A stretch of DNA of 64,000 bases from a virus (Duplodnaviria > Caudoviricetes): positions 64,001-128,000 of the IMG/VR virus record IMGVR_UViG_3300035510_000286. The stretch is one strand, 5' to 3'. The notes under the pieces were generated by a model, which ran no database searches, was not told where the DNA came from, and was given only the letters and a program-made list of their open reading frames with translations. Shown here piece by piece: positions 1 through 63,651 of the stretch. Each line of letters starts with the position of its first letter. Within the stretch, counting starts at the first letter, position 1. Both the position numbers and the translations under genes were made by a program.

Positions 1-473
1 TATCCTTTTTTCTCCTTCCCTCTCCCCCATTTTCCCAACTCGCTTGACCTTTCAAACACGATTTCCTTCCCCTTCTTAACACGGAAATCCGCAAAATCTA
101 ACTTGTTCAACACAAACATCATATCAATAATCTTCCACTACTCAACTCGTAAACATTCCACTGCATATCCTAAACTAAAACTCTTCTTATCTTGAATCCA
201 TAACAACAACTCCAGACATTCCGCACTTAACCCCACAGACGCTCTCCGCAGTATCTTACCGTCAATTTCAAAATTCTTAACTTCATATCTTTTCTTCTTT
301 TGATTCCAAAATATTTCTTTACCAAGCAGATTCTTAACTCGATTAGAAACCCCAGTCCCGCTTAATCCTAAATCCTTACCTATCTACATATAAGTGAAAT
401 TCTTTTTCTCAATCCAACATATCTTCCCATCGGGAGTACTATGTTCATACAACCATAAAGTCACAGCATCCAT
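1..473 (-). CDS. HTH-containing protein, read through two TAG codons; runs off the window edge
   Basis: Manual translation from ATG at 473: MDAVTLWLYEH...NFTYM(TAG)IGKDLGLSGTGVSNRVKNL, an HTH-like segment if TAG=Gln. No TAA/TGA before position 1. Confidence 0.6.
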
Positions 474-767
474 TTTAACATCTCACTTATCAAAAAATTT
501 TTAAAACTGTTCTTCTCCACTTTTAAGAACAACTCTTAAACTCTTTAAAAAATTACTTATATTCTGAAACAAATTTTGCCCAAATCTCTTCTTTTAATGT
601 AATAATTATACTATAAATTTTATATAAATACAAGTATCTTCCAACCCAGTTCTCTCTTCTCTTGCTAACAAAATTAAAATTTGCAAAAACGAAAAAATTT
701 TGGTATTATATCTACAGAAATAAAGAAGGGCACAAGCCCGACAATCTAAAGCAAAAGGAGTACAACA

Positions 768-1112
768 ATGGACTTCAACGAAATTATCAACTCTTACCTT
801 GAGGAAGGTTACACCGAAGAGCAAATTCGAGAAGCTTTTTCCAACAATCTCGAATCTGCTACTTCCAAAAACTGGTATGCAGATACCAAATTCAATGGTG
901 ATGCAATTTATTCTCTTAAGTGTTACATTGCAAAAATCTATCAAGAAACAAAAGCAAAAGACTCCAAGATCGAGTTCTCCGAGAAAGACCTCAATGATTT
1001 CACAGACCTTGCGGATGAGGCTGTTCGTAGTACACTACTAACCTACTACAAACTCTCTAACTCCGACTTAGCTACTTCTCTGCGGGAGCTGGAGAATCTA
1101 CTCTTCCACTAA
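768..1112 (+). CDS. hypothetical protein
   Basis: 114 aa ORF with AAGGAG RBS and an upstream promoter-like element. Confidence 0.75.
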   Translation: MDFNEIINSYLEEGYTEEQIREAFSNNLESATSKNWYADTKFNGDAIYSLKCYIAKIYQETKAKDSKIEFSEKDLNDFTDLADEAVRSTLLTYYKLSNSDLATSLRELENLLFH

Positions 1113-1220
1113 CCTCGATACTAGCGGCGTTCCCGCTTGCAAAATCTCAAAAAATATTATAAAATAAAATAAAAACAAAACAACGAGGGCGTTAGCCCCC
1201 GAGTAAAGGAGAAAATTAAA

Positions 1221-1613: not shown

Positions 1614-1617
1614 TTTT

Positions 1618-6042: not shown

Positions 6043-6046
6043 TATT

Positions 6047-9993: not shown

Positions 9994-10082
9994 ACGGGAA
10001 TCGCCTAGCGGCTGAGGGCAATGGGCTTTGACCCCATTAGGTATTATACCTCACGTTGGTTCAAATCCAACTTCCCGTGCCA
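9994..10082 (+). tRNA. tRNA-Gln(TTG) with an unusual long variable arm
   Basis: ATGGG-CTTTGAC-CCCAT; variable hairpin AGGTATTATACCT; G73-CCA. Confidence 0.85.
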
Positions 10083-10097
10083 AGAAAGGAAAGTAGA

Positions 10098-10775
10098 ATG
10101 ACTTGTGGAATTTATAAAATTGAAAATATGATTAATCATCATATTTATATCGGACAAAGTCGTAATATTGAAAAAAGATGGAATAATCATAAACGAGTTA
10201 AAGAAGAAGAAAAGCACGCTATACATAGGGCTATTGATAAATATGGCATCGAGAATTTTTCTTTTGATATTATAGAAAAATGTGAGCCAGATAAATTAAA
10301 TGAAAGAGAAATCTATTGGATAAGTAAATATAATAGTTACGAAAGAGGATATAATGAGACCCGCGGAGGACAAGGGTTTGCAGCTACAGTCAAGTTGACT
10401 TTATCCCAGGTTGAAGAAATAACTAATTTATTAAAAACAAATCAATATACTAATTTAGAAATAGCAAAAAAATTTGAAGTTTCAGAAAATACAATTTGTG
10501 GCATTAATACTGGTTATAATTGGAAAAGACAAGGCATTGACTATCCAATAGCAAAAGAAAGAGTTAAACCTGCTCAACAAAATTATTGTATTGATTGTGG
10601 AAAATTAATAACTTCTCAAGCTGTAAGATGCGTAAAATGCGCTTCTATAGCCTCTCGTAAAGTAAATAGGCCCAATAAAGAAGAATTGAAAGATTTTTTA
10701 ATTAAAAACAATGGCAATTTTACTAAAGCTAGTTAGAAATATGGAGTATCTGATTAGGCTATTAGAAAATGGTGA
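10098..10775 (+). CDS. free-standing GIY-YIG homing endonuclease (TAG=Gln at 10734 and 10755)
   Basis: GIYKIEN...YIGQS, LNEREIYWI, GYNET.GG; readthrough gives the HTH KAS(Q)KYGVSD(Q)AIRKW. Confidence 0.88.
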
Positions 10776-10829
10776 CTTACCTTATCATTCAAGAGATTAT
10801 AAAATAAAAAATAATTAAATCTTATAATA

Positions 10830-12760: not shown

Positions 12761-13258
12761 ATGAACGCTATTATTCGTCTTAGACGAGACAATGACTATA
12801 ACTATGCTAAGATTGCAGATACTTTCGTTCCTGCTAATGGAGAAATCTGTCTAGTGGATACCGCATCAAAAGGCTTAATGGCAGTGTGCGGCGATGGCGT
12901 TACTGCATTCTCTGGGCTAGAATATAGTAATGAAATTGTTATATTAGGTTACTTCTTTGAAGGAGCCTTTTATAAAGACTCAGAGCATACTGAACTCTAT
13001 AATGCTTTGAGTAATAGAGTTTATGTGGATTCAGAATAGGGAGCTTTTTACTATGATGGGAATGAATTCGTGTCTTTAAGTGGCTCTCTACCTACCGCTT
13101 CCGCACAGACTGCTGGTGTTATGAAGCTTTATGATACTACGGGTGATGCTATCGATGGTTCGATGACTCAACGTAGTATCACAGAAAATCTTAATAAAAA
13201 GATTGAAGCTTCTTTAAATGCCGAAGAAGAAGAGTTAATTATTTCAAAACTAATTTAA
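12761..13258 (+). CDS. tail-fibre-associated protein with Mtd_N-like start (TAG=Gln at 13037)
   Basis: ORFs 12761-13039 and 13070-13258 are in one frame, separated only by TAG. Confidence 0.75.
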
Positions 13259-14539: not shown

Positions 14540-15724
14540 GTGGCAGAATTATCTAAAATAAAATTAGGTGGCACCACTTACACCATTAAAGATAAAGATG
14601 CGAGGGATCGTCTTGATGCCGTTGAGACGACCCTCGCATCGGGGCTTATCTTTAAGGGTACAGTCTCAAGTGCTGCCGGTATTACAGGATTAACAAATTA
14701 TAAAATTGGTTGGACTTACAAAGCCTCTGCCTCTTTTAGTATAACAAATATAGGAAGCATAGAATCAGGAGACATGATTATTTGTGTTTCTGAGTATAGT
14801 TCTTCCTATAAAGCAACAGACTGGACTGTGGTTCAGAATAATGTTGATACATTTACAGGCGCAAGTGCGAGTGCGGCAGGTACAAGGGGTTTAGTACCCG
14901 GGCCCTCCGCAGGCAGTCAAGCTAAGTTCTTGCGTGGAGATGCAACTTGGGCATCTATAGACTCAGTACCTAAATTAACTACTGCCCGCACAATAACTGT
15001 AGGTGGCGATGAATCAGGTTCTGCTTCTTTTGATGGCTCTTCTAATGTTACTATCAATCTAACTGATAATCGCTTTGTAATGGGCACTCAGACAGCTTCT
15101 ACTGCAGATTGGACTGGTAATTTACATGGCGTCAAAGCATTATATGATGGACTTTGTATTAATTATTGGCTTCCTTATGCTTCTGTGAGTAGTACTAATG
15201 TTACTTTAAATTTAACTCTCGACGATGGTACTACTACAGGCGCTATTGATTGTTATAGATGGGCAACTTCAAGATTAACTACGCATTATGGGGCCAATTA
15301 TCTTGTTACATTAACCTATCATTCTGGAGTAAATATTAATGGAACTACTTATACTGGTTGGTGGGCTACTGGTGATGCAAATTCCACTTATTCTAATGCT
15401 TCACTAGGATAGGGTTATGCAACGTGCTCAACAGCGGCAGCGACTGCGGCAAAGGCAGCTTCTTTAAGTAGTTATTCTTTAACTACTGGAGGTATTGTTG
15501 CTGTTAAATTCACTTATGATGTTCCTGCAAGTGCTACTTTGGATATAAATTCTAAAGGCGCAAAAAATATTTACTACAACGGAGCAGCCATTAAAGCTGG
15601 AGTAATAAATGCCGGAGATATAGCTTATTTTATTTATAGCTCTCAATATCATTTACTAGGGAAAAATACCACTTTAGATGACGTAGCTTCTGCTTTAGAC
15701 AGTGTTACATGGTTTGATTTTTGA
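14540..15724 (+). CDS. tail fibre protein (TAG=Gln at 15410)
   Basis: GLVPGP..G...KFLRGDATW and ARTI...G..SGSASFDGS fibre motifs; readthrough gives ASLG(Q)GYATCSTAAATAAK, in frame with 15539-15724. Confidence 0.8.
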
Positions 15725-16206: not shown

Positions 16207-16281
16207 GGAGGTGTAGTGTAATGGTAGCACAGAGGGCTCTAACCCCTCGGGTCTTGGTTCGATTCTGAAGCGCCTCTGCCA
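16207..16281 (+). tRNA. amber suppressor tRNA (anticodon CTA), probably Gln-charged
   Basis: GAGGG-CT CTA AC-CCCTC (anticodon 16239-16241); Gln-like loop; G73-CCA. Confidence 0.9.
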
Positions 16282-16330: not shown

Positions 16331-17569
16331 ATGTATAAAGAACATTACCCGTTTTTTAGTAGCGTGTGTTTGAACCTCACTGACGCGTGCAACCTAGAAT
16401 GCAAGTATTGCTTTGTTAAGCAATGTAACCACTATATGACTTACGAAATTGCAGAACAAAGCGTTGATTTTTTAATGAATAATGTTAAACAAAAGGAAGA
16501 ATTAACTGGAATTAAGCAAGATCCTTCTATCACTTACTTTGGCGGTGAACCTACTATAATGTGGGATAGTATTATTGTGCCGCTAACTAAGCATATTAGA
16601 GAGAAGTATGGAGATACTATTACTCTTACAATGACTACTAATGGGACGCTACTGAATAAGGAAAGAATTGATTTTATGCGGAAGTATGATATCTATCCTC
16701 ATCTTTCTTTCGATGGTCCTAAAGAAGTTCAAGATAAAAATCGTCCAATGCGGAATGGGCAAAGTAGTTATGAGGCGGCGGCTTCCAATATTTCCTATTT
16801 ATTACAAAATTTTCCAAACACCGCTATGAGAGCAACCATTGACCAAGCTACAGTTGATGGCACTTTTAACTCGTATGTTTTCGCTATGGAGCACGGTTTC
16901 CGCAATTTCTTTACAATGCCTAATGGCAGAGAAACTTGGTCAGAAGAAAATATTCAAAAACTTGATGAAGAAGTAGAAAAGATTTTTGCGTTGATGTATC
17001 TACAGTTTTCTGAAGGTCATAAACCTTTTACTTCTTTTTCTCGTATTGATAAAACTTATGAAGATATACTGAATAGAGATTTACAGTTCTATCATAATAG
17101 ATTTAACAATGTTTCTATTCATCGTGAACCTTTTAGATGCGGCCTTGGTACTACTTCTGCTTCTATCTCTTATGATGGTAGAATTTATGCTTGCCAAGAA
17201 CAAGATTCCTATGGAAATAGTTTTTTCTTTATTGGTGATATTTGGAATGGCGTAGATAGAAAAAAGCATGAAGCTTTATTAGATGAATATACGAAAGAAG
17301 CAATAAATCAGTGTGAGAAGCCTGAACTCTGCAAAACTTGTCCTTTGCGGCAGGTGTGTCAGACTAATGGTTGTCCTTCTTCTAACTATGACACCTATGA
17401 AGATTTCTTTATTAATCCAGAAGTAGCTTGTAGATGGAATCAAATCTTATTTAAGCACGCTATCAACATGATGAGATGTCTGGTAGAAGAAAATAATTTA
17501 GCCTTTAAAGATTATTTAGATAATGAATGTCATTATAAAAATTATTATAGAAAGGAGGAAAAGCAATGA
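16331..17569 (+). CDS. radical SAM/SPASM domain protein (peptide-maturase-like)
   Basis: CNLECKYC (CxxxCxxC), YFGGEP, TTNGTLL, SFDG; SPASM C..G..YAC...CKTC.....C....C...C. Confidence 0.92.
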   Translation: MYKEHYPFFSSVCLNLTDACNLECKYCFVKQCNHYMTYEIAEQSVDFLMNNVKQKEELTGIKQDPSITYFGGEPTIMWDSIIVPLTKHIREKYGDTITLTMTTNGTLLNKERIDFMRKYDIYPHLSFDGPKEVQDKNRPMRNGQSSYEAAASNISYLLQNFPNTAMRATIDQATVDGTFNSYVFAMEHGFRNFFTMPNGRETWSEENIQKLDEEVEKIFALMYLQFSEGHKPFTSFSRIDKTYEDILNRDLQFYHNRFNNVSIHREPFRCGLGTTSASISYDGRIYACQEQDSYGNSFFFIGDIWNGVDRKKHEALLDEYTKEAINQCEKPELCKTCPLRQVCQTNGCPSSNYDTYEDFFINPEVACRWNQILFKHAINMMRCLVEENNLAFKDYLDNECHYKNYYRKEEKQ

Positions 17570-18808: not shown

Positions 18809-20281
18809 ATGTTAAATGAATTAAAGGTTGAAGCATCTAAAACTTATACTGAAAATGGCGGCGTGAGTTATTCTACTACTGCAAATCGAGTGTTTGATCT
18901 CTTTAGCCTTGGTGGCGCATATAGAGAGCGTAGTAAAGAAGATACGATTGCACTTTTTGCTTCTGCTTATCGAGAGAATCCTACTTTTGCTTTGAAGTGC
19001 CTGTTTTACTTGCGTGATGTGCGCGGAGGCCAGGGCGAAAGAGCCTTTTTCCGAGTTTGTTTGAAGTGGTTGGCTAATTATGACCCTGATGCAGTTCTGC
19101 GGAATCTTGGATATATCCCTGAATTTGGTAGATGGGATGATTTATTCGAGTTGTTTGATACTCCGGTTGAAGCCGAGGTAATGCAGTTTATTGCAGAACA
19201 ACTTGCAATGGATATTAAGAACGCTCTTAAAGAAAATTCTATTAGCCTTCTTGCTAAATGGCTTCCCAGTGAGAATACTTCTAGTCAGGGAACTCGAAGA
19301 AAGGCTAAGAAGATTCAAGAATATCTTCATATGACTCCCAAGCTGTATCGTAAGACTCTGTCAGAATTGCGGAATTATTCTAACGTTCTTGAGCGTCTTA
19401 TGAGCGACAAGAGATGGGATGAGATTGATTTCTCGGCTGTTCCTTCTAAGGCTGGTTTGAAGTATTCTAAAGCTTTTTTAAAGAATAAGGAAACTTCTGA
19501 GCGATATCAGAAATTTATTCAGTCTAAGAATACTAAAGTCCATGCTGGGACTCTGTATCCTGCTGATGTAGTGCATAAGGTTATGGGTAAGAGCTATTAT
19601 GATATGCACTATACTGGCTTAGAAGATAGAGCAATATATAACAAGTATTGGGAAAATCTTACCGACTATTTTAAGGGCGCAAAATTCAATGGAATTGCTG
19701 TCGTTGATACTTCTGGTAGTATGTACGGACGCCCGATCGAAGTTGCAATCTCGTTAGGTTTGTATTGCGCTGGAAAATGTAATCCTGAGAGTCCTTTCTA
19801 TAACCATTATATTTCTTTTTCTAGTCGGCCTGAACTAGTAGAGATTACTGGGCAAGATTTCTGTAGCCAGGTAATTAACATCTATGATAATATGCTCTGC
19901 GATAACACTAATATTGAAGCTGTATTTAATCTACTGCTCAATACCGCTTTAAAGCACCAGCTCCCGCAGTCTGAGCTTCCTGAGAATATTATCATTATCT
20001 CTGATATGGAATTTGATAGTATGACGAACTATAGAAGCTTAGAGGGTCTTTACTCTGGTATGGAGACTATTAGAAACAAATGGGAAGAATACGGATACAA
20101 GATGCCTAATCTTGTATATTGGAATGTCAATGCTAGACATAACCTTATTCCCGAGGCTCTCAAGAACGGTGTTTCTTTTGTAAGCGGTTACTCCCCAGTT
20201 ATTTTGGATTCTATTCTTACTGGCAAGACTGGTAAAGAACTGATGTTTGAAACTTTAAAGAAGTATGATATGATTCGCTAA
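18809..20281 (+). CDS. DUF2828-type protein, Ro60/TROVE-like helical domain plus vWA domain
   Basis: TENG, FYLRDVRGGQGER, GRWDDL, LAKWLPSE, vWA MIDAS DTSGSM, IISDMEFD. Confidence 0.85.
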   Translation: MLNELKVEASKTYTENGGVSYSTTANRVFDLFSLGGAYRERSKEDTIALFASAYRENPTFALKCLFYLRDVRGGQGERAFFRVCLKWLANYDPDAVLRNLGYIPEFGRWDDLFELFDTPVEAEVMQFIAEQLAMDIKNALKENSISLLAKWLPSENTSSQGTRRKAKKIQEYLHMTPKLYRKTLSELRNYSNVLERLMSDKRWDEIDFSAVPSKAGLKYSKAFLKNKETSERYQKFIQSKNTKVHAGTLYPADVVHKVMGKSYYDMHYTGLEDRAIYNKYWENLTDYFKGAKFNGIAVVDTSGSMYGRPIEVAISLGLYCAGKCNPESPFYNHYISFSSRPELVEITGQDFCSQVINIYDNMLCDNTNIEAVFNLLLNTALKHQLPQSELPENIIIISDMEFDSMTNYRSLEGLYSGMETIRNKWEEYGYKMPNLVYWNVNARHNLIPEALKNGVSFVSGYSPVILDSILTGKTGKELMFETLKKYDMIR

Positions 20282-35696: not shown

Positions 35697-35708
35697 GGAG
35701 GGAATTTA

Positions 35709-38072: not shown

Positions 38073-38081
38073 GGAGGTATT

Positions 38082-39908: not shown

Positions 39909-40889
39909 ATGGATATTTTAGCTTGTATTCTTGCCTTTGCATTTTGTTTTTTAGCAGTTTATGCCTACAGCTTAAAGTAGGATGTTAAAAAAACTGTTAA
40001 ATTCAATGCAAAGTAGGCAGAAGAAAATAAACAATTAGAATAGACAGCAAATGACTTAAAAAATACAATAGAAAATTTAACTTTAGAAACTTCAAAAGTA
40101 AAAAGTGAATTAAAAGATAAGCAAGATTCTTTACTATATATTTCTGATTAGATTATACATTCTGAGAAGCAACAGAAGGATTTAGTAAATGACCAAGCTG
40201 AACGCCTAAGAATAGCTGGACAAGCAGAGAAGGAAAAACTACAAAGAGAATATGAAGATTACCGAGAAGAATTAAGGTCAAAACTAGAGAACTTCAAAGA
40301 TGAAATCTCGTTAAAACAAACTTCTATTTAGAGTGCTATAAAAGAAGAGGAATCTAAGTTAGCAGAATTGCGGGCAAAGTAGGATACGTATCTCTAGGAG
40401 CAACAGAGAAAAGAAGAAATGCTTCGTAAGAAAGATTATTATCGTTTATGTATCTCTGATGCGGAAATTGCGGATGTGCAAGCTTTGAGGAACTTTCAAT
40501 CTACCTTCTCGCGCAAAGAAGCTATAGATAAAATTTTGTGGGATATTTATTATAAACCCGCTTTTGACGTTCTTTCTTCACATTTGTTTGAAGGAACCGG
40601 TAAGGTTTGTGGAATTTATAAAATTACTTGCTTAGATATTGATAAAGCTTATATAGGTCAAAGCGTGGATATACGAGAACGTTGGCGGCAACATATCAAG
40701 TCTGCTTTATCTCATGAATCTACTTAGAATAAACTATATAAGGGCATGAAGGAATATGGCGTTCATAATTTTACTTTTGAAATATTAGAAGAAGTACCTA
40801 GAACGAAGTTGAATGAACGAGAAGTTTATTGGATTGATTTCTATAGAACTCAAGATTTTGGATTCAATGGAAATAAAGGTGGTAGTTAA
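39909..40889 (+). CDS. TM plus coiled-coil plus C-terminal GIY-YIG nuclease; many TAG codons
   Basis: One frame from ATG 39909 to TAA 40889, broken only by TAGs; CGIYKIT...YIGQS...LNEREVYWI. Confidence 0.75.
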
Positions 40890-42625: not shown

Positions 42626-44755
42626 ATGGCTATTAATCTTCTTAGTGTTCAGCCTCATAAGGTTTCTCGAGACCTGAGCGGCTATATTACTTTTTTATTT
42701 GGACCTGCGAAAAGCGGAAAGACGACCTTCGGCACTCAAATGCCAGGTCATCTTCTCCTAGCGTTCGAAAGAGGATTATGAATAACGCTTATGTTTCTTC
42801 TTATAAAAACAAATATTCTTTAACAGAACTTGGAAAGGATTACCTTCAAAAGCATTTGGAGAAAGGAGAAAGCTATAAAACTATAGCAAAAGAATTTGAT
42901 ATAAATCCTGATACTTTAAGTACTTTAGGTAAAAAAAATATGGTATTCAAAAAGATAATAGAAGAAAATTTTCTTTAAATGAATCATATTTTAAAAAAAT
43001 AGATACTAAAGAAAAAGCTTATTGGTTAGGATTTTTATCAGCGGATGGCTCAATTAGCGAAGATAGGGGTCGAGTAGATATTACTTTGCAGCCTCAAGAT
43101 GAAGAGCATTTAGAAAAATTCTTAAAAGCTGTTGGCTCTAATAAAAAAGTAACTCATAGTGCTTCGCAAAAGGGTAAATTCCCAAATGTTTATGTTCATC
43201 TTAATAGTGTTAAAATGGTAAAAGATTTAGTAGTTTTAGGTTGTCATCAAAATAAAAGTTTAGACTTAGAATATCCTACAGAAGGAAAAAGTACCTAAAG
43301 ATTTACAACTTTATTGGATTCTAGGATATTATGATGGAGATGGCGGGATTACTTATTCAGAAGATACTAAAAGATATAAAACATATTTTACAGGAACTTA
43401 TGAAGTAATTTCTAAAATTAATGAATTTTTGGGATATAATAATTCTATTCGCCAAGAACACAGATGTACAAATAATACTTATAAAGTTGAATATACAGAA
43501 GGAAAAACAGATGAATGGCTTAGTAAAGCTTATGATTCTGATACTAAAAAGTTTTGTTTAAAAAGAAAATTAGATAAATTTGAAAATGCGTTTACAGTCC
43601 GTAATACAAAGTGATTTGTATTAACGCCAAGAATTGAACTGCGGGAAACCCCTTAGAGCTTTAATAACCAAACTATCATAGTAATATAGATAGTGGCGAA
43701 GGTAATGACTAAGGTATGGTAAAATCATTAAAGATTGGGCAATCCGCAACGAAGCTTCCAACTTGGAAGAACGCTCAACGACTATCCAAATGGCGACGTG
43801 AAATACGTCTATAGGAGTAGGGCCTTAATGGTGGGTGAGAACCCCTTAAATCGAAGTGGTTCGCTTCTTTAAAAAAGAAGAAAGATATAGTCTATTCTTA
43901 TAGGAAACTATAAGTAGTAAAGATAACGCAATACCGGGCGCGATGGCTCAAGACATTACATCTTGGGGCGAGATGAAACAAGTCTTGCGAGAGCTGAAAA
44001 AGCCAGAAGTTAAAGAAACTTTCCAGAGTGTTATTGTGGATACCGCTGATATTGCTGCTGATATGTGTCAGAAGTATATTTGTAATCAGCTTGGAATTGA
44101 CAATATCGGGGACGGCGGATGGACTAATAATGGCTGGAGTAAATATAAAAAGGAGTTCGAAGACACTTTTAGATCTCTGGCTCAAATGGGATATGCAATC
44201 GTGTTTTTGTCCCATGACAAGGAAAAGACGGTTAAGCCGCAGAACGGAGCTGAATATCAGCAGATTGGTTCCTCTATTCAGAGTTCTGCACTTTCTATCA
44301 TCGAAAATATGAGCGATATTATTGCTTATGCACATCCTAAGATGCTAGCAGATGGTACATCTCGCATGGTACTTACTCTTCGCTCCCCTGATAATAGTAT
44401 TCGATGCGGTTGCCGCTTTAAGTATATTGAACCCGAGATTGACTTTTCTTACGAAGCTCTCGTTTCCGCTCTTAACAAGGCTATTGATAAAGAAGCAGAA
44501 ATGACTGATGGTAAATATGTTACTAATGAAAAACAGCAGATTACTGCCGCTAAGGAATATGACTTTGAAGGCATGATGAGTGAGTTCCAAAGTCTCGTTG
44601 GTACGCTTATGGAGCAGAATCAGTCTAATGCAATGAAGATTACTGCTCTTGTTGAGAAATATCTTGGTAAAGGTAAGAAAGTTGGAGATTGTACTCCTTC
44701 TCAGTGTGAGCAATTAGAGCTGATTCTTTTGGATATGAAAGATATGGTTGAATAA
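42626..44755 (+). CDS. AAA ATPase (Sak4/AAA_24-like), join(42626..42776,43923..44755)
   Basis: GPAKSGKTT; splicing gives AFERG-YNAIPG; VIVDTAD; FLSHDK; 328 codons. Confidence 0.85.
42777..43922 (+). mobile_element. group I intron carrying a degenerate LAGLIDADG endonuclease
   Basis: P AACTGCGGGAA, Q AATCCGCAAC, R TCAACGACTA, S AAGATATAGTC; terminal G. Confidence 0.88.
42778..43614 (+). pseudogene. LAGLIDADG homing endonuclease with two frameshifts
   Basis: KAYWLGFLSADG and WILGYYDGDG lie in different frames; shifts at A-runs near 42935 and 43290. Confidence 0.75.
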
Positions 44756-45365: not shown

Positions 45366-47932
45366 ATGAGCGATTACATTGATACTACTGCTGTTATTCA
45401 GGTAATTGGATGCGTGTTAAATACTCCTTCTATCTTGGATGAAACAGATAAATATACTATTACTGATGAAGATTTTGCACAAGAGTTTCATAGAATTGTC
45501 TTTGGTAGTATTTATAATATTCATTCTAGTGGTAATGACGTCACAATAGATAGTATTATAGATTATTTAAGCAACAGACCGAAATATGATGCAATCTTTC
45601 ATCAGAATAAAGGTCCTGAATATCTAGTTAAAATTTCACAAATAGCTACTCAAGATACTTTTAATTATTACTACAATAGATTAAAGAAATTCACTCTTAT
45701 GCGGGCGTATGATAATTTTGGCTTAGATATGCGTCAGTTCTATGACCCAACTAATGTGTTAGATACAAAAAAGAAGCAACAGCAAGAAGATTGGTTAGAT
45801 AACATTTCACTTGCGGGAATAGCTGAAATGATTGATGCTAGTATTGATGACATTAGACTAAGATGTGTTGATGACGACGGGACTGAAGGTTATCAAGCTG
45901 GTGATGATATTCTCGCGCTTATCCAGGATTTGGAAAAACATCCAGAAGTTGGAATTCCGCTCTACGGGCCTCTTATTAATACAGTTACTAGAGGCGCGAG
46001 ACTTAGAAAATTTTATCTTCGGTCAGCAGCTACAGGGGTAGGCAAAACACGCACTATGGTGGCAGATGCCTGTAATTTTGCGTGTAACGAAATCTATGAG
46101 CCTGACTTTGGTATGTGGATTAGAAATGGTAAATCTCAGCCAACTCTTTTTATCGCTACAGAACAAGATAAAAGTGAAGTACAAACTATGATGTTGGCTT
46201 TTGTTTCTGCTGTTAATGAAGAGCATATCCTGAATGGTCAATATGAAGATGGAGAAAGAGATAGAGTAATCAAGGCGGCAGAAATTCTTAAGCAAGCTAC
46301 ATTATGGATAGAAGAACTACCAGATTTTTCTCTGCAAGATATCGAAAACAAAATTAAAAAAGGCATTAGAGATCACGACGTAAAATACGTGGTTCAATAA
46401 AGTGAGCCAATGAAAAACTTTTCCAGCTACCACTGGGGTTTGTTTAATAAACAAGCTAACGGGGAAGCCTAAACTAGTAATAGCATGGTAATCCCGTGGG
46501 AAACTTTGGACAGAAATAATCAAAGTTGTTGTGACTATTTTCATATATAGTATAAATAAAAAAAGGAGAGTTACAATAATGGGAATTATTTATTGTTTTA
46601 CCAATCTTATTAATAATAAAAAGTATATCGGACAATCAATTCGAGAAGATAACACTAGATATAATAATCATATTTATGATTCAAAACATGAAAAAAGCTC
46701 TGGATATGAATATCCTTTACATAGAGCCATTCGGAAATACGGCATTGAAAATTTTAAATATGAAATTTTAATTAGTGGAATTGATGATATAAATATCCTT
46801 AATTAGTTAGAAGTATATTATATACAAAAGGAAAATAGCCAAGTACCAAACGGATATAATATTGCAGATGGCGGCAAAAATTGTTCAATTCCTAAGACAG
46901 AAGAACAAAAAGAAAAAGCTACATGGTCGCAAGCTAAATTAACTAAAGAAGAAATTATTGAATTAAGATTGGCGTATTAGAGAAAAGAAAGCCCGAAGAA
47001 GATTTATAATGAAAAATATAAAGATAGATTACATTATAATTCTTTTTTAAATATTTGGTCTGGCAGACGATACAAAAATATTATGCCAGAAGTACTAGAA
47101 AATGGGCGTCACACTAAAATGACTTTAGAGTTAGCTAATGAAATAAGAAATATTTATCAAACTGAGAAAATTTCTTATCAGAAGTTAGCTGATAAATATG
47201 GAGTATCTAAAAGCACAATAGCGGATATTATCTCTAATAGGACATGGAAAAATGTCTAAAGAACCTGTATCGACTATTCCCGAGGCCTTCTGGGCGGGGA
47301 AGTAGGGCTGTTATTGGTACACAGCGAGATTTTAGGAAACGAAGTCTCTGAAAACCGAAAAGGTTTCCTTCCAAAACGGAAGTAAAATATAGTCAGTTCT
47401 TATTGAAAAATAAGAGGAAAAATGTCACGATTACATTCATACTAGCTTAAAAATCTTAAGCGAGATTACGAGGAAGAGTGGCGGTGTTAGGTTGCGTGAG
47501 GACAATGTTCTTTTTATGCTTTCAGCTCGTTTAAAAGATATTGCTAATACTTATGGTGTTTTTATTTTATCGGGCACTCAGCTTAATGGTAGCTATACAG
47601 ATAGCGAGACTCCTGACCAAAATTTACTTCGAGGTGCAAAATCGATAGCGGACAAGATTGATGTCGGTATGATTCTATTGAACGTAAAAGACGAAGATCT
47701 CGTTAAATTAGAACCAGTTCTTGCTTCTGGCAGATTTAAAACTCCAAATATTAAAATGTCAGTTTATAAAAACAGAAGAGGTAGATATAAAGGAGTTTAT
47801 CTCTGGTGTTATGCCGATTTAGGAACTTGTAGAGTAAAACCGATGTTTGCAACTACTTATAATCACGAAATGGTTAGTATTGAAGATATTAAAATTATGG
47901 TGGATGATGATGCGCCACCTTGGGAGGAATAA
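45366..47932 (+). CDS. dnaB: DnaB-like replicative helicase, join(45366..46393,47425..47932)
   Basis: SAATGVGKT, FIATEQ; splicing gives KYVV-HDYIH; TQLN, KNRRG; 512 codons. Confidence 0.9.
46394..47424 (+). mobile_element. group I intron in dnaB with a GIY-YIG ORF
   Basis: P1 UGGU/GCCA; GCTAACGGGGAA, AATCCCGTG, GTATCGACTA, AATATAGTC; terminal G. Confidence 0.9.
46579..47259 (+). CDS. intron-encoded GIY-YIG endonuclease (TAG=Gln at 46804 and 46978)
   Basis: GIIYCFTN...YIGQS; LN(Q)LEVYYI...GYNIADGG; C-terminal HTH. Confidence 0.85.
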
Positions 47933-53913: not shown

Positions 53914-53967
53914 TTTGAACTTCATAGAAAAATATGATATTATATCTATAGAAAGGATGTGAAAGGT

Positions 53968-56900
53968 ATGGATTACCCTGGCAGTTTGCATAATCATACT
54001 GGATATAGTAATCTTCGACTTAGAGATTCTATCATTATGCCAGAAGAATTAATTGATTATGCTATCGAGTTAGGACATGAAGTAGTCGCTATTACTGAGC
54101 ATGAATGTATTAGTAACGCAGTAAAAGTAGAAAAATATTATGAAAAAATTAAGAAAACACATCCTGATTTTAAAGTAATTCTTGGAAATGAAATCTATCT
54201 ATGCCGAAACGGATTAAAAGCTCAAAATTTTGATAAAACCTCTGACAAATACTGGCATTTTATTCTTTTGGCAAAAGACGCTATCGGTCATCAGCAGATT
54301 AGAGAAATTTCAACGAGAGCTTGGATGCGTTCTTACATGACAGGCCGCACAAGACGAGTTCCTACATATTATAGCGACTTAGAAGAAATCATTGGCCAGA
54401 ATAAAGGACATATTATCGGGAGTACTGCCTGCTTAGGTGGAGTTCTACCTACCCAAATCCTAAAGTGGAAAGAACTTCCTACCGATGAGCTGTATTCCAA
54501 AATCTGCCATTGGTGTCAAAATATGGAAATGCTCTTCGGAAAAGGAAATTTCTTTCTTGAACTTCAACCTTCTGCTTCCGAAGAACAAACGTTTGTAAAT
54601 CGAGAATTGATTACTCTATCTGAAAAGTTAGATATTCCTTATATCATAACAACAGATAGTCATTATCTCAAGAACGAAGATAGATACGTCCATAAAGCTT
54701 ACTTAAATTCTGAGGATGGTGAGCGAGAAGTTGATGCTTTTTATGCTACGACTTATATGATGGATACAGAAGAATTAGAGTCTCGCCTCGCTTTAACAAA
54801 AGAAGAGTTAGAAAAAGCTTACTCAAATATCCGCAAGATTAAAGATATTTGTGAAGATTATAGTTTGCGGAAACCGCTTAAAATTCCTGAGCTGGCTTGG
54901 AAGATACCAGAATACGTGTCAACCGCAGATAAGGATTTCTATATTAAGAAAATTCCTTATTTATTTGAATTCATTGCTTCTGATTATGAAGGCGATAAAA
55001 TACTCGCAAATGTTATTATTCAAGCAATTAAAAAGGAAATTACTTATCAAAATCAAGAAACTTATGACGCTGTAAATGAATGTTTGCAGATGACATGGGA
55101 TTCTTCTATTGTTAATAAAACGCATTGGAGCGCATATTATCTAAATCTGCAAAAGATTATTGATACTGTGTGGGAAGCTGGAAGTCTAGTTGGACCAGGC
55201 AGAGGCTCGGGTGTTGGCTTTATCCTACTGAATATGATGGGGATCACCCAGATAAACCCATTGCGCGAAACCACTAAAACTTTCGCTTGGAGATTAACCT
55301 ATAGGTTTAAAGGTCTCCTAAGTATGGTGACATACTTATAAAAAACCTCGTGAACGCATGAAAAAGCGGTGTGAAATTATGCTAAATAATTTTGCTAACG
55401 GTGGACAGTTTTAATTAAACTCAATACCGTGCTTTTTACTTTCTATTGAGTAGTCAAAGGAAAGTAAGGAGTGTATCGACTATTCCTGATGAGTGTAAGG
55501 AAGTAGGGTAGATTTTATCACTATCCGAAGCGCGAGGACTCTCCTTTATTTTCCTTAATATAAGGAGGAAGATAAAATGGGATATATTTATAAAATTACA
55601 AATTTAATTAATCAAAAAGTCTATATAGGTTAGACCGTTAAAACGGTAGAAAAAAGATTTTAGCAGCATAAAAGTAATAGTAATAAAGAATATTTTTCTC
55701 AAATAGTTTTATATAAAGCATTTAACAAATATGGAATTAATAATTTTAAATGCGAAAAAGTTGAAGAAGTTGATAATCAATATTTAGATGAAAGAGAAAA
55801 ATATTGGATAGAATATTATGATAGTTATTTTAATGGTTATAATAGCACTTTAGGCGGACGAACAGTTCAATTATATAATTGGGATATAGATGATATTATT
55901 GAAAAATATATGAAATTAAAATCTGCTAGAAAAGTGGCTTTAGAGATTGGATGCGACCATTCTTCGATTGACAGAATCTTAAATGAAAATGGAATTAAAC
56001 GTTTTACTCCAGGATAGCAACAATCTAAACCATTATTTTTAATTGATAAAAATAATAATACCTATGAATTTGAAACCACAAGAGAAGCTGCTGAATGGTT
56101 AATTAAAAACAAATATACTAAAATGACCAATCTAAATTCTGTAAGGCAAGAAATATGCGACAGAATTAGGAAAGGTAAAAAGTATTTAGGATTTTAGGTG
56201 TTTTATAAAGGAGAGTAAGATATAGTCAGCTCCACTGGCGACAGTGGAATAAGTGTTTTAAATCCTAGCCGAGTTTCTGTGTTGGATGTAGATATAGATG
56301 TCGAGGGATCTCGTCGTCAAGATATTTTAAATAAGCTTAGAGAAGTTTATGGTGAAAATAGAGTAGCTAATGTTATTACTTTCGGTACAGAAAAGCCTAA
56401 AGCGGCTATCCTGACGGCCGCACGAGGCTTGGGTATAGACGTTGAGGATGCCCAATATATTTCTTCTCTTGTTCCAGAAGATAGAGGAATATCCAGAACT
56501 CTTCATCAATGTTATTATGGAGATAAAGATAACGATTATGCTCCAGTAAAGCCTTTTGTAGATGAAATGAACGCAAGACCAGAGCTTTGGAAAATTGCAA
56601 GAAGTATAGAAGGTTTACCTTGTAGAATGGGAGTTCATGCCGGCGGGGTTATTTTCGTCGATGAACCATTTACGAATACAACTTCTTTAATGCGCGCTCC
56701 TGATGGAACTATAGTTACAGCTTTTGACCTGCACGATAGTGAGGAGTGTAGTCTTATTAAATATGATTTGTTGAGCGTTGAAGCTGAAGATAAAATCCAT
56801 ATTTGTCTTGACCTATTATGCGATGCTGGAATAATTGAACGTAAAGCCACTCTTAAAGAAACTTATGAATCCACTGTTGGTATTTACAATCTTGAAAGAG

Positions 56901-58777
56901 ATGACCCTGAAATGTGGAAAATGGTATGGAATCATCAAGTTATTTCGCTATTTCAGATGGAGAAACAAAGTGGTATTCAGGGTATTGCTCTTACTAAGCC
57001 TAAAAGCGTTGAGGATTTAGCTCACCTTAATTCTGTAATTCGTCTTATGGCTCAAGAAAAAGGTGGAGAACAACCTCTTCATAAATTTGCAAGGTTTAAG
57101 AATGATATTACTCAATGGTATGAGGAAATGGATGAATATGGTTTAACCAGACAAGAGCAAGATTTGCTAAAGCCATATCTTTTAAGCTCGTATGGGATTG
57201 CAGAATCCCAAGAATCATTCATGCAGCTAGTTCAGATTCCCGAATGTGGTGGATTTGACTTAAACTGGAGTGATCGTCTCCGCAAGAGTATTGCAAAGAA
57301 AAATCCAGCCGAGTTTGAAAAGCTGGAAGAAGAATATTTTGAACAAGTTAAAGAGAAGAATTTAAGTAAGAATCTCTGCAACTATGTTTGGAAGGTTTTA
57401 GTCTCCACTAGCCGAGGTTATGGGTTCAACTTATCTCACACACTCGCTTATTCACTCGTGGCTCTCCAAGAAATGAATTTAGCTTATAAATATCCTACAA
57501 TCTATTGGAATTGCGCTTGCTTAATTAATGATAGTGGTTCAGTAGGAGAAGATAGTTCTAGTAATTATGATAAAATGGCTAGTGCTATTGGCAAGATGAA
57601 AGAAGCAGGAGTCCAAGTTAGTTTACCTGATATCAATAATTCTAGTTTTGGCTTTGTTCCTAATGCCGAAGAAAATAAAATTTACTTTGGGTTAAAGGGA
57701 ATAGCAAATGTAAATGATGGGTTAGCTAATCAAATTATCGAAAATCGACCTTATAATTCTATGTTGGATTTCTATTATAGAGTTAATCCTAATCGTAAAG
57801 TTATGGTTGAATTGATTAAAGGCGGAGTTTTTGATAGCCTAGGACCTCGTTACCGCACAATGGTAGAATATATCTGGGAAACTTGTGATAAGAAAAAACG
57901 TATCACGATGCAGAATTATTCTAGTCTGCGGAAATACGATCTGATTCCGCAGGATAGCGAGGAATTTGTGATTTCGTCTCGGGTGTATGAATTTAATAGA
58001 TACTTAAAAGATACTTGCAAAGTTGGAGAATATTATCAGCTTGACGAAAGAGCGGTTAATTTCTTAGTATCCACTAATATTTTAGATGGCATCCCCGTGG
58101 GTTATTTAATGCCGGTTAAAGATTGGAATAAAACCTACCAAAAATATATGGATGTTTTTAGAAATTGGATGGCGGAAAATCAAGAAGAAATTTTGGATGC
58201 TCTGAATACTTCCATATTTTTACAGGATTGGGAAAAATATGCAACCGGCAATTTGTCCGCATGGGAAATGGAAGCTGTGTGTTTCTACGCGCATGAGCAC
58301 GAGCTCGCGCACGTTAATAAATTTAAATATGGTTTGTCTGATTTTTATTCTTTACCAGAAGAGCCTGTGGTTAAAGATGTGATTAAACGAGGAGATTTTA
58401 CAATTCCTATCTATAAGTTAAATTGCATCTGCGGGACTTGTATTGCAAAGAATAAAGCAAAAGGAACTGTGACTCTACTGACTACTGATGGCGTTGTACC
58501 TGTCAAATTCCGCAAAGAATATTTTGCTTTATTTGATAAACGTATTTCTCAACGTAGAGAAGATGGAACTAAAAAGATAGTTGAATCTAGTTGGTTCAAG
58601 CGCGGTGAGAAGATTCTGGTTAGTGGAATCAGAAGAGGAAATGAATTTGTCGCTAAGAAGTATGCTTCCGGTGGATTAGAGCATCAGCTTTATCACATTG
58701 ATTCTATTGATGCAGAAGGTAACTTAGAACTTAGAAGTGAAAGGTATAAAGGGGAGGAAGAACAAGATGATGATTAA
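53968..58777 (+). CDS. dnaE: DNA polymerase III alpha subunit, join(53968..55294,56256..58777)
   Basis: PHP HNHT...ITEH; GRGSG; splicing gives WRF-LNPSRVSVLDVDID; HAGG; KYDLL; 1283 codons. Confidence 0.93.
55295..56255 (+). mobile_element. group I intron in dnaE with a GIY-YIG ORF
   Basis: P1 GGAGAU/GUCUCC; GCTAACGGTG, AATACCGTGC, GTATCGACTA, AAGATATAGTC; terminal G. Confidence 0.9.
55577..56218 (+). CDS. intron-encoded GIY-YIG endonuclease with several TAG codons (absent from ORF track)
   Basis: MGYIYKITN...VYIG(TAG)TVK; LDEREKYWI; GYNSTLGG. Confidence 0.85.
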
Positions 58778-59330: not shown

Positions 59331-59385
59331 CTTATATGATTTTTTAAAGTATAATATAACTTATAGAAAGCAAAGGTGATTAACT

Positions 59386-62300
59386 ATGTATATTGTGAAA
59401 CGTAGCGGTGAAACCGTTGAGTTTGATAAAAATAAGATTATCAATGCTATTAACAAAGCATTTGTAGAAGTTGATGGCACTTTATATGAAGATGAAACAG
59501 CACAAGAAATCGCTAATGATATTGAGAAAGAAATCAACAAGTCTCCTGCTAATGTAACTGTTGAAATGATTCAAGACTGGGTCGAAGATGAATTAATGCA
59601 GTCTGAACGCAGAGACGTAGCTAGAGCTTATATTAGATTTAGATATAAGAAGGAAGTAGCTAGGGATGTAAAAGCGGATTTCTTTGATGCTATTGGCGAA
59701 AAGCTTTCTGCTTCTAATATCCAAAACCAAAATGCGAACGTAGATGAAGCTTCTTTCGGAGGCCGTATCGGTGAAGCTTCTAGCGTTATGACTAAACAAT
59801 ATGCTTTAGATTATATTGTATCTAATATGGCAAAGCAGAATCATTTGAACAATGAAATTTATATTCATGATTTAGATAGCTACGCAGTCGGGATGCACAA
59901 CTGCTGTGCACGAGAGACAAAATTCATCACTAAAGATTTCGGAGTTCATTCTTTTTCTGACCATGAAGATGGTGATAAAATAGTAGTGTTAAGCCATGAT
60001 GGTAGCTTTAATAACGCTACAGTTAAAAAATTTGGAGTTCAAAAGTTGAACAAGGTTACTTTTTCTCTTGCTGGACAAAGATTTGTTACAGAGCGTTTTA
60101 CAGCAAACCATAGATGGATATTAGAAAATGGGGCAGAAACAACTCATTTAAAAATAGGAGATAAACTTTATAAGGCGCCGATTAGTATTAGAAGGTTTGA
60201 CTGGGATATGGCGACAGAAAAAGAACAATATTATTGGTGTTTAGGATTTGTCCTTGGTGATGGTACAGAGGCTTGTAGATGGTCGCACGGAAAGAAGAAT
60301 GAAGATATTAAATTCGTTCGTATGAGACTTTGTGGCGAAAAAATTAAATACGAACAAAGGTTTATAGGGTTGAAACATTCTACGAAGGAAATGCCTAACG
60401 GCGACCTATATCTAACATTCAGTAGCACGATTGGATTTAGGAAAATCTTCCCCGACCTTAATCTTATGACAAGAAACGAAAAACTAGCTTTATTTGATGG
60501 ATTATATTGTGCAGATGGACAGCATACAGGGAGCAGTAAAACGATTACTACTACAAATGAACAAATAGCTAGCTTTATAGAAGATGAAGCCCCTGCGCTG
60601 GGGTATTTTATTCTTGGAATTAAAGACAAATCTGGAGAAAAGACAAATTATACCACAAGAGGTTTCACTAAACAATATACCTTTATTGGAGATACAAATA
60701 AATACTATTGGACGGTTGTAAATATTGAAGAAGATAAGGAAGAAGAGGTATGGTGTTTGCAAGTTGAAAATACTCATAGCTTCGTTCTCCCAAATGGCAT
60801 TACTACTGGAAACTGCTTAAGTGTACCTTTTGATGATTTACTGGCTAATGGCTTTGATACTAGACAGACTGATGTGCGGCCGGCCAATAGCGTTAATACA
60901 GCTTTTCAGCTTGTCGCGGTGATTTTCCAGCTTCAGAGCTTACAAGAATTTGGTGGAGTTAGCGCTACACATCTTGATTGGACGATGGTACCATACGTCC
61001 GTAAAAGTTTTTATAAACATTATATAGATGGATTAAAATACATTGATAGCTTTGAGGCCGAACTCAAATTGGCTATTTCTAGTGATGAAGCTAAAGATAT
61101 TAGTATCGAAGATACTAAGATTTATAAGCATAAAATGTCTTATAATTATGCTATGGATATGACAGTTAAAGAAGTTCATCAGGCAGTAGAAGGAATGTTC
61201 CATAACCTTAATACTTTGCAGAGTAGAAGCGGGAATCAACTCCCCTTTACTTCTATCAATTTTGGTACTTGTACTCTTCCTGAAGGCCGTATGATTATTA
61301 AATCTCTATTAGAAACCTCTATTGAAGGAGTAGGTAAACTACATAAAACACCTATCTTCCCTTGTTCTATCTTTCAGTGTATGAAAGGTGTCAATAGAGA
61401 ACCTGGAGATCCTAATTATGATTTGTTCCAACTGGCATTGAAGTCTACTTCTCAAAGGCTTTATCCTAATTATGCAAATGTCGATTGGAGCGGCAATGAA
61501 GGGTATGACCGAGATGACCCGCGGACTTATTTCTCGACCATGGGTAAGCGTAAACTACAGCTCATGTAAAATCTTTTGAACCTCGCTCGAGGGTGTCTAC
61601 TTATAAAGTAGGCTAACGGTTAGGACCTATGAATGTTAAATAGGCTGAGACCGTGGGAAGTTTAATATATTTGATTTAAATTTGGCTCTTTTATATAATA
61701 TAGCTATATTAAAGTAAAGGAGTAAATAAATATGTTTATCTATAAAATTACTAATAAATTAAATGGCAAAGTATATATTGGTTAGACAATAGGCAGCATA
61801 GAGGCTAGATGGCATCGTCATCAATAGGATGCTTTAAATGGTAGATTAGATACTCATTTTGCCAGAGCCATTAGAAAGTATGGGCCTGAAAATTTTGATG
61901 TTGAAGAATGGGATAATAAAAATACCTAGGAAGAATTGACATTAGCAGAGCAATATTGGATTAAGTATTTTAATAGTGTAAAAGAAGGATATAATGAGAC
62001 TGATGCAACATCAAAATGTGGTGGCAATACTTATAAGAGTAAGACCGAAGAAGAACTAAGGCAAATCGGGGAAAAAATTAGAGAAACGAAATTAGGGGGT
62101 AAAAATCCTAATTCAACTGCCGTTAAATGCAAAAATATAAAGACGGAAGAAGAGTATTATTTTAATTCTCAAGCCGAAATGCAAAAATTCTTTAATGAGA
62201 CTAATCATCTTTTTATATCTAGGCGTTGTCTTGGAGAAATCCAAAAACCTTATAAAGACGAATGGCTAATTGCCTATGCTGATAAAGAATACGGAGAAGT

Positions 62301-63651
62301 TCAAAGGCAAGACCGTGAAAGAAAAGTGTCTAAAAAACCAAAAAATATACGAGTAATAAAACTTTCTACTCAAGAAAGTAAAGATTTTTCTTCTTACGCC
62401 GAAGCAGAAAGATACTTTAATATAAAACCTCGCAGTTTTAGCTCAAAAGCGTATAAAAGAGGAAATGAATTTACTTATAAAGATGAATATAAAATTATTA
62501 AAATATATTAAAAACCTGTATCGACTATCCCTGATGAATGTATGGGAGTAGGGCTGGAGATAAGCACCAGCGATGTTTTAGGAAACGAAGCATCTGAAAA
62601 CCGAAGCGGAAGACTACTTAGTCACAAGTAGAAGATATAGTCAGTACTAATGGTAACATTAGATAAAATGTGTAGAACAGCTAACGGCTACGACATCAAT
62701 GGGTTCGGCCAGCTAAAAGATGGCCGTGGTAATATTTGCCCCGTAACTATTATTATGCCCACTTTAGCTATGGAAGCAAAAGAAGAATATGATGGAACCA
62801 CTGAGGACGCTCCAGATAAGATAAGCTTATTTATGAATCTTCTTGATGAAAAAATCCATGAAGCTAAAGATATGCTCATTGAGCGATTTGAATATATTTG
62901 CTCTCAATCTCCAGCCAGCGCCAAGTTTATGTATAGAAATCATGTTATGGCAGGGTATAATCCAGAAGAAGGCATTAGAAGCGCGTTAAAACATGGGACT
63001 CTGGCTATTGGCCAAATTGGATTAGCTGAAACACTTCAAATTTTAATCGGTTGTGACCAAACAACAGATAAAGGAATGGAATTAGCCAAACGGATTGAAC
63101 AATTATTTAAAGATAGGTGCGCGGAATTTAAGAAAAATTATAAACTTAATTTTGGTGTATATTTTACTCCGGCAGAAAATTTAGCTTATACTTCTATGAA
63201 AAAGTTCCAGGAAAAATATGGTAAAATTCCTAATGTAAGTGAAAATGATTATTTCACAAATTCTATTCATACGCCGGTATGGAAACAAGTTTCTGTATTT
63301 GAAAAAATTGATATTGAATCTCAGCTTACTGGATATTCTTCGGCTGGATGTATTACTTATGTAGAATTAGATTCTAGTGCAAAGCATAACCCAGAAGCTT
63401 TAGAGATTATTGTAAATTATGCAATGGATCACGATATACCTTATTTCGCGATCAATGTCCCCAATGATACTTGCTTAGATTGCGGATACACCGATGAAAT
63501 GGATGATTCTTGTCCTATGTGCGGCGGCCAGAATATTCAGCGCCTACGTAGAGTTACTGGATATTTAACAGGTGATTATAAGAGTGCTTTTAACCTCGGC
63601 AAGCAGCAGGAAACTGAAATGAGAACTAAACACGTAGGAGTGAGAGAATGA
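59386..63651 (+). CDS. nrdD: anaerobic ribonucleoside-triphosphate reductase, join(59386..61545,62671..63651), containing an intein
   Basis: ATP cone, IYIHDLD, splicing gives STMG-CRT, GRGN, TPAE, YFTNS, RRVTGYL. Confidence 0.94.
59902..60813 (+). mobile_element. 304-aa intein with a LAGLIDADG domain, in NrdD
   Basis: GMHN|CCARET...TANHRW...LGFVLGDG...DGLYCADG...VWCLQVENTHSFVLPNGITTGN|CLSVP. Confidence 0.92.
61546..62670 (+). mobile_element. group I intron in nrdD with a GIY-YIG ORF
   Basis: P1 AUGGGU/GCUCAU; GCTAACGGT, GACCGTGG, GTATCGACTA, AAGATATAGTC; terminal G. Confidence 0.9.
61732..62511 (+). CDS. intron-encoded GIY-YIG endonuclease with TAG codons
   Basis: MFIYKITN...VYIG(TAG)TI; AEQYWI; GYNET. 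Confidence 0.85.

Follow-up and report, generated by a model that had tools for sequence, protein, structure and literature searches.

The codon TAG recurs in frame within the genes of an uncultured phage, which raises the question of whether it still terminates translation and, if it does not, which amino acid it specifies. The stretch under study, referred to as the window, comprises 64,000 nucleotides (bases 64001–128000) of the 136,132-bp IMG/VR record IMGVR_UViG_3300035510_000286. A sequence-only reading of this stretch had claimed a genome-wide reassignment of TAG to glutamine (Gln, Q), and the claim was followed up here in the window and in the whole record; coordinates are those of the window unless marked as genome positions. 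The obtained results suggest, with a probability of about 0.9, that the phage reads TAG as Gln (NCBI table 15) and that TAA and TGA are its sole terminators. This assignment is derived from the homologue columns together with a likelihood test, from TAG↔CAG/CAA exchanges with a near-identical relative, from the tRNA(CUA) of the phage itself, and from a gain in coding density that was seen for TAG only.

TAG as a sense codon

The TAG-containing motifs on which the claim had been built were all found at the positions given for them, namely YIGqT at 55631 and 61783 (the paralogues read YIGQS), NGKqCPG at 32694, TPqIII at 51226, LGqGYATC at 15410 and SqKYGVSDqAIRKW at 10734/10755, with q standing for TAG. 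Continuation of the reading frame beyond TAG was assessed in ten window genes with a codon-usage score, for which the model was trained only on TAG-free open reading frames (ORFs) of at least 250 amino acids. Of the 33 inter-TAG segments with 10 codons or more, 32 had the original frame as the best-scoring one, where chance would give ~1/3, and the continuation that had been read from the letters was thus confirmed. Pfam domains likewise run across the TAGs: DHH, DHHA1 and RecJ_OB span the six TAGs of RecJ, and the same was observed for PIN and PhoH, for Amidase_2 and for five GIY-YIG domains.

Genes were called over the whole genome with a simple codon-usage-scored caller. The coding density increased from 0.666 under table 11 to 0.866 under TAG=Q, a comparison that had been proposed as a check of the recoding, and the control reassignments gave 0.673 (TGA=W) and 0.714 (TAA=Q). 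Within the window alone the density rose only from 0.822 to 0.878, because the window is the TAG-poor arm of the genome; in the left structural arm it rose from 0.530 to 0.862. Naive ORF coverage under the different stop reassignments showed no discrimination between them.

The 167 genes called under TAG=Q end in TAA (119) or TGA (48), as had been said of the intact genes, and 370 in-frame TAGs are spread over 71 of the called genes. The gene at 10056–10775, whose TAGs lie solely near its end, is the only one that could conceivably end at a TAG. The TAGs at 30911, 16214, 28118, 43901, 62629/62638 and 6026 fall in "extended" ORFs and are non-coding; each of them either precedes the real start or belongs to intervening sequence. 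Under standard-code annotation ~70 genes are broken or lost, and the anticipated loss of RecJ, the endolysin, PhoH and the endonucleases in the window was observed, with all five homing endonucleases affected.

The amino acid specified by TAG

The identity of the amino acid was examined by aligning the TAG sites to homologues, as the sequence-only reading had suggested, and by a Codetta-like likelihood test; both favoured Gln. For RecJ, translated with TAG=Q, 120 homologues among the matches listed were used (~580 amino acids, 56–64% identity, 99% coverage), all of them uninterrupted in their own assemblies. The six TAG columns read, in order, Q in 102, Q in 109, L in 91, Q in 89, K in 89 (Q in 11) and Q in 120 of the 120 homologues. 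Gln therefore dominates at four of six columns and is invariant at 51226, with a background of 4.4%.

A second set consisted of ~130 loci from ~45 related IMG/VR phages, which were aligned by tblastn with X at each TAG. In these relatives, the PhoH column 31787 contained Q in 46 cases, TAG in two and S in one, the RecJ column 51226 contained Q in 60, TAG in 17 and K in one, and the YIG-X column 55631 was occupied by Q (25) or TAG (13) in all 38. The stops found inside the alignments of the relatives were TAG in 985 cases, TAA in seven and TGA in one. For the likelihood test, substitution frequencies were taken from the same alignments and each site was weighted once. The log-likelihood was highest for Gln, both over 28 window sites (−74.0, with S next best at −87.7) and over 41 sites (−110.6 against −128.6 for K). 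The probability of finding Q in a homologue opposite TAG was 0.34, compared with 0.41 opposite Q itself and a background of 0.035.

Not all of the examples of Gln at TAG withstood this comparison. The column of amidase 32694 reads L/T and that of amidase 32412 reads Y/A/Q, while the fibre site 15410 has no alignable homologue over the site beyond the near-identical relative. In the helix-turn-helix example at 10734/10755 the motif is present, but the Gln assignment there rests on one paralogue.

The near-identical relative, IMGVR_UViG_3300035498_000413 (G001), is an independently assembled 76.6-kb contig of ~96% identity, of which ~65 kb could be aligned in blocks of 83–98% identity, mostly 94–98%. 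Over 19,070 codons compared, 74 in-frame TAGs are common to both phages. A further 26 differences involve TAG; 13 are TAG↔CAG/CAA, four are TAG↔AAG/AAA, and several of the others lie in a poorly aligned stretch. Among the 21 alignable TAG sites of the window, 18 are TAG in G001, and the others are CAA (61783, in YIG-X, and 61927) or AAT (61825). Conversely, G001 has TAG where this genome has CAG (14834, 31970 and 40404) or CAA (12202). The retention of 74 TAGs in an independent assembly, together with the TAG↔CAG/CAA exchanges, indicates that the TAGs are not assembly errors.

The suppressor tRNA

The window encodes a candidate amber suppressor tRNA (Table 1), which scored 38.1 bits against the Rfam tRNA model (cut-off 29 bits) and is identical in sequence in G001. 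When compared with a set of 69 tRNAs from this phage, G001, the related gut phage phAss-1 and two relatives, its nearest neighbours were other phage CUA suppressors, that of phAss-1 included, at 68–73% identity. All of the compared CUA suppressors have G73 and a weak or mismatched 1:72 pair, features that we take to be Gln identity elements recognised by glutaminyl-tRNA synthetase (GlnRS). These features and the likeness to other suppressors point to Gln as the amino acid carried, and the tRNA would presumably be charged by the Gln pathway of the host. A BLAST search of the 75-nt sequence against 45 relatives returned two weak matches only, DNA similarity being too insensitive at this distance.

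One gene outside the window contains 66 TAGs. With 90% read-through per site, simple arithmetic gives ~0.1% full-length protein, a negligible yield, and suppression would therefore have to be near complete.

Uneven use of TAG and a possible timing of expression

The recoding had been described as genome-wide, which holds for the genome as a whole, but its use is highly uneven and the arm within the window mostly avoids TAG. The structural arm (genome 1–47 kb) contains 18.3 TAG per 1000 codons, corresponding to 41% of its Gln-type codons, and the right end (genome 128–136 kb) contains 19.2 (34%). The plus-strand genes of the window other than endonucleases contain 1.3 (5%), a figure that is partly inflated by a 5′-extension artefact, and its five GIY-YIG genes contain 14.9 (28%). 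Overall, TAG is ~14-fold rarer in replication than in structural genes. The genes avoiding it include those of the gyrase, ligase, helicases, polymerase and NrdD as well as the tRNA cluster. Besides the endonucleases, TAG occurs in the window in RecJ (six), the amidase (two), PhoH (one) and two fibre-like or unknown ORFs (one each). Structural and lysis genes are thus rich in recoded codons, and early and replication genes poor in them, as a late-gene timer model predicts. As the gyrase, ligase, helicase, polymerase and NrdD genes and the tRNA cluster avoid TAG, they can be translated by an unmodified host ribosome.

An extended −10 box, TGnTATAAT, was found within 120 nt upstream of nine of 43 TAG-free genes and none of 37 TAG-bearing genes, counting genes with an upstream gap of at least 50 nt (Fisher p = 0.003, an optimistic value because the motif was picked after a k-mer screen). 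A k-mer search for a motif specific to the TAG-bearing genes returned T-runs only. Many more TGnTATAAT boxes are clustered among the small genes at genome 48–62 kb, which is probably the early region.

These observations are consistent with a scheme in which the TAG-free genes, the tRNA cluster included, would be expressed first from host-type promoters with the standard-code apparatus of the host. As the suppressor tRNA accumulates, the TAG-bearing late, lytic and selfish genes would become translatable. In that case the recoding would serve to time translation, in line with the model of Borges et al. (2021).

Alternative explanations

Several points weigh against the reading of TAG as Gln and against its role in timing. 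The homologue sets are phylogenetically redundant, so that raw counts overstate independence, and the site-weighted test was built on just 28–41 sites. Variability is seen in many TAG columns, among them the two of the amidase, RecJ 49882 and, for the most part, the coiled-coil region of 39909–40889. The tRNA(CUA), whose T stem is weak, is given no more than 38 bits by the Rfam tRNA model, and its Gln identity is one that we infer. The basis of the temporal model is gene class together with a promoter motif picked post hoc. Finally, no PCRF (release factor) domain and no class Ic synthetase domain (GlnRS or glutamyl-tRNA synthetase) was detected in the 136-kb record, which is estimated to be 79% complete; no gene for release factor 2, for an antagonist of release factor 1 (RF1) or for GlnRS was found that would account for near-complete suppression.

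TAG might be translated as Lys, Glu, Ser, Tyr, pyrrolysine or some further amino acid in place of Gln. Several TAG columns are indeed dominated by K, E, S/T, Y or L, the four TAG↔AAG/AAA exchanges with G001 would fit, and ARAGORN labels the tRNA "Pyl", a label given from the anticodon alone. We consider such a residue improbable, as Gln was the maximum-likelihood residue by 13–18 nats in the site-weighted test, TAG stands at the invariant or near-invariant Q columns of RecJ 51226, PhoH 31787 and YIG-X, and its commonest exchange is with CAG/CAA. Pyrrolysine is further disfavoured by the 7-nt D loop and 5-nt variable loop of the tRNA, which we take to be unlike the compact shape of pyrrolysine tRNA. 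For the related phAss-1, tRNAscan-SE assigned the tRNA-Sup-CTA to Gln (PMC10607447). The chance is similarly small that TAG remains mainly a stop with low-efficiency read-through, the truncated products being the main or functional output and the full-length proteins a minor one. RF1 is presumably present in the host, only one suppressor tRNA gene and no release-factor or synthetase gene were detected in the phage, and the gene at 10056–10775 could end at its first TAG, all of which would suit weak suppression. Essential virion genes outside the window, however, carry 13–66 TAGs each, TAGs lie within catalytic domains (the GIY-YIG motif, DHH and PhoH), and no well-supported gene has TAG as its sole terminator.

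A host that itself uses the TAG=Gln code, to which the phage would be adapted with no code switch during infection, could also account for the in-frame TAGs. Such a host appears very unlikely, since the ~14-fold avoidance of TAG in replication relative to structural genes would be senseless had TAG served as an ordinary codon all along, and since the phage encodes its own suppressor tRNA. In addition, the closest cultured relatives infect standard-code Bacillota, and published recoded phages of such kind have standard-code hosts (bioRxiv 10.1101/2021.08.26.457843). No observation favoured the possibility that the TAGs arose by misassembly or sequencing error, or that they belong to pseudogenes in decay, and its chance of being correct is negligible: the interruptions are by TAG only (985 TAG against 8 TAA/TGA in the alignments of the relatives), 74 of them recur in the independently assembled G001, and frame and codon usage carry on after them in 32 of 33 segments.

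Recoded endonucleases and other mobile elements

With TAG read as Gln, five GIY-YIG genes become complete in the window (Table 1). All eight TAGs of the coiled-coil endonuclease at 39909–40889 are also TAG in G001, and the frame is kept in every segment. Three further endonucleases lie in insertions of ~1 kb that split dnaB (45366–47932), the DNA polymerase III alpha gene (53959–58777) and nrdD (59386–63651). The halves of the split genes are contiguous in 38–75 related loci (75 for DnaB and 63 for the polymerase). In the dnaB endonuclease, the columns 46804 and 46978 read Q in four of 10 and four of seven relatives. The sequence-only reading had spoken of intron endonucleases lost under the standard code; five recoded GIY-YIG genes were indeed found, but near the three insertions that carry endonucleases Rfam detected no group I intron, even at a permissive E-value, and the insertions may be either introns or free-standing endonuclease genes. 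The first NrdD part (59386–61569) has an intein-like insertion at residues 193–473, for which Pfam Intein_splicing scored 28.7 bits, below the cut-off of 35.8 bits.

The only group I intron detected lies at 43582–43914 (Rfam RF00028, 53.3 bits, E = 1e-10), just upstream of the AAA_24 ORF at 43943–44755. Because the Pfam match of this ORF starts at profile position 43, the AAA_24 gene is probably split by the intron.

The endonuclease cassette at 10098–10775 is absent from G001. At 9994–10829, the ordinary 74-nt tRNA-Gln(UUG) of G001 is replaced by an unrelated tRNA of 89 nt, which also has the anticodon UUG but bears a long variable arm and G73 (Rfam 55 bits) and precedes the GIY-YIG gene; the flanks are 100% identical to G001 up to the edges of the swap. 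When viral contigs were searched by exact pattern for the long-arm tRNA(UUG), no match was obtained. The combination of a tRNA swap and an endonuclease recalls SegB in the tRNA cluster of phage T4.

Outside the window, a reverse transcriptase (Pfam RVT_1, E = 6e-16; genome 133628–134827, minus strand; locus L007:5628-6827) has 19 TAGs in 399 codons, a density among the highest of the called genes. A LAGLIDADG endonuclease with three TAGs (genome 34309–35346, minus strand; locus L004:14309-15346) is located inside the structural arm.

A tentative proposal, which we regard as rather doubtful, is that the amber codons form a translational lock on selfish or hazardous functions within an early arm that otherwise keeps the standard code, and thus an adaptive gate, not a neutral by-product of movement between recoded phages. 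If true, the five GIY-YIG endonucleases, the LAGLIDADG endonuclease and the reverse transcriptase would be active only after the suppressor tRNA has accumulated.

Genome organisation and gene content

The record has 36% G+C and a CheckV completeness estimate of 79%. Genome positions 1–264 recur at its end (genome 135869–136132) with 94.7% identity, and both ends are bridged by G001. Instead of a 79% fragment, the record may represent a circular permutation that is nearly closed.

The genes of the window lie nearly all on the plus strand. They comprise a cluster of 12 tRNAs, a radical-SAM enzyme, an RNA ligase, phosphoesterases, the PIN-PhoH protein, an Amidase_2 endolysin, GyrB-like and GyrA-like proteins, an ATP-dependent DNA ligase, the AAA_24 protein, DnaB, RecJ, a UvrD-like helicase, DNA polymerase III alpha, a guanylate kinase and a class III ribonucleotide reductase. 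From this content, the window is the replication and nucleotide-metabolism arm. A DUF2828/DUF7788 protein is encoded at 18809–20281, downstream of the radical-SAM gene (16331–17569), and every gene of that block is TAG-free. The terminase, tail and fibre genes are located on the minus-strand arm outside the window (genome 1–47 kb), which is syntenic with the structural block of phAss-1. The source is an uncultured siphovirus-type gut phage, distantly related to the assemblage of phAss-1, SPbeta and Enterococcus EF1.

The features of the window are listed in Table 1. The six RecJ sites and the fibre-like site 15410 are all TAG in G001. Collinear homologues of the PIN-PhoH protein were found in 42 of 45 related phages. 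The amidase genes of the relatives have 1–3 TAGs each and no other stop. The 165-amino-acid ORF at 12761–13258 had no Pfam family match.

Table 1. Recoded genes, candidate suppressor tRNA, upstream boxes and a TAG-free block in the window.
Feature	Position	Strand	In-frame TAG	Basis and remarks
GIY-YIG endonuclease	10098–10775 (called gene 10056–10775)	+	2, near C-terminus (10734, 10755)	Pfam; adjoins replaced tRNA(UUG)
165-amino-acid ORF of unknown function	12761–13258	+	1 (13037)	Halves in frame, scores 29.7 and 32.8
Fibre-like protein	14540–15724	+	1 (15410)	Both halves in frame, scores 104 and 36
Candidate amber suppressor tRNA, anticodon CUA	16207–16281	+		ARAGORN; Rfam tRNA; 75 nt, encoded CCA, discriminator G73, weak G1-U72 pair
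PIN-PhoH protein	30926–32164	+	1 coding (31787)	Pfam; TAG 30911 upstream of likely start
N-acetylmuramoyl-L-alanine amidase (endolysin)	32217–33047	+	2 (32412, 32694)	Pfam Amidase_2 spans both
GyrB-like, GyrA-like and ATP-dependent DNA ligase genes (example of TAG-free block)	33521–39179	+	None	Pfam
Coiled-coil and GIY-YIG endonuclease, 326 amino acids	39909–40889	+	8	Pfam GIY-YIG 234–314 spans TAG 40725
GIY-YIG endonuclease inside DnaB helicase gene	46531–47259	+	2 (46804, 46978)	Pfam
RecJ-like single-stranded DNA exonuclease, 586 amino acids	49519–51279	+	6 (49546, 49588, 49882, 50230, 50641, 51226)	Pfam DHH/DHHA1/RecJ_OB
GIY-YIG endonuclease inside DNA polymerase III alpha gene	55577–56218	+	4 (55631, 55661, 56015, 56195)	Pfam
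GIY-YIG endonuclease inside anaerobic ribonucleotide reductase gene nrdD	61732–62511	+	3 (61783, 61825, 61927)	Pfam
Extended −10 boxes before TAG-free genes	13361, 20634, 25009, 30179, 39196, 41657, 44803, 52264	+		

Relation to known recoded phages and significance

Amber suppression as such is familiar from E. coli supE, a tRNA-Gln(CUA) whose suppression is partial and whose cell keeps TAG as a stop codon. The phage likewise has a Gln-type tRNA with an anticodon reading UAG, but in this phage TAG has been dropped as a terminator and serves as a sense codon at hundreds of places. Reassignment of TAG to Gln in gut phage lineages, which the sequence-only reading had taken as established, agrees with the published code-15 phages and the phAss-1 group. 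Code-15 gut phages include crAss-like, Lak, Garnet, Amethyst, Agate and Topaz phages (Borges et al., 2021; bioRxiv 10.1101/2021.08.26.457843), and Peters et al. (PMC9523058) described peptides that support TAG = Gln in crAss-like phages. In Agate phages, Borges et al. also found an early gene whose group I intron endonuclease is preferentially recoded, there with TGA, and they reasoned that its in-frame stops postpone its synthesis.

The phage under study resembles those phages in its in-frame TAGs and phage-encoded suppressor tRNA, in having recoded structural and lysis genes but replication genes in the standard code, in the preferential recoding of endonucleases within early genes, and in the patchy distribution of the code among close relatives. 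It differs in that the endonucleases are recoded with TAG, not TGA, and that five of them occur in one arm. It further differs in that no code-change module (a release factor and/or an aminoacyl-tRNA synthetase beside the suppressor tRNA) was found in the 136-kb record; such a module is optional in the published clades.

The phage phAss-1 (OQ749652; proposed Phassvirus; NCBI "Caudoviricetes code 15 clade") is a 136-kb gut phage with TAG = Gln and a tRNA-Sup-CTA, and is part of a broader monophyletic group in the vicinity of SPbeta-like and EF1-like phages (Babkin et al., 2023; PMC10607447). The two phages are alike in size (~136 kb), in reading TAG as Gln with a tRNA-Sup-CTA and no dedicated synthetase, in their recoded TerL, tail and amidase genes, and in having DNA polymerase III alpha, a class III ribonucleotide reductase and a tRNA cluster; they have 45 of 167 genes in common, with synteny in the structural block. 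However, the shared proteins are only 22–53% identical, blastn gave one high-scoring segment pair of 368 bp, and 12 tRNAs and one suppressor here compare with 36 and three in phAss-1. By these sequence comparisons the phage is placed outside the proposed genus Phassvirus, whose members share 80–86% nucleotide identity, as a distant relative.

Closer kin are more than 500 IMG/VR contigs; in the 79 retained, RecJ is 48–58% identical. Among deposited phages the highest RecJ identity was 36%, and a megablast search of 8.4 kb against the INPHARED phages gave no match. In a quick RecJ tree of 80 rows including this phage (loci L021–L099), with the recoding state judged on the TAG-poor replication region only, 61 rows had at least four in-alignment TAGs and 14 had none or one. 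The recoded and TAG-less loci were interleaved on the tree, and at least 6–8 changes of state would be needed.

The recoding, its bias towards late genes and the recoded intron endonucleases have already been published for other phages, and this phage adds one more case. With it the recoded phages gain a large Bacillota-type phage lineage, and this genome, together with hundreds of related IMG/VR contigs, needs to be annotated with table 15. The contrast within the genome, in which TAG-rich endonuclease genes break up TAG-free replication exons, fits the published proposal that late and selfish genes are timed by recoding.

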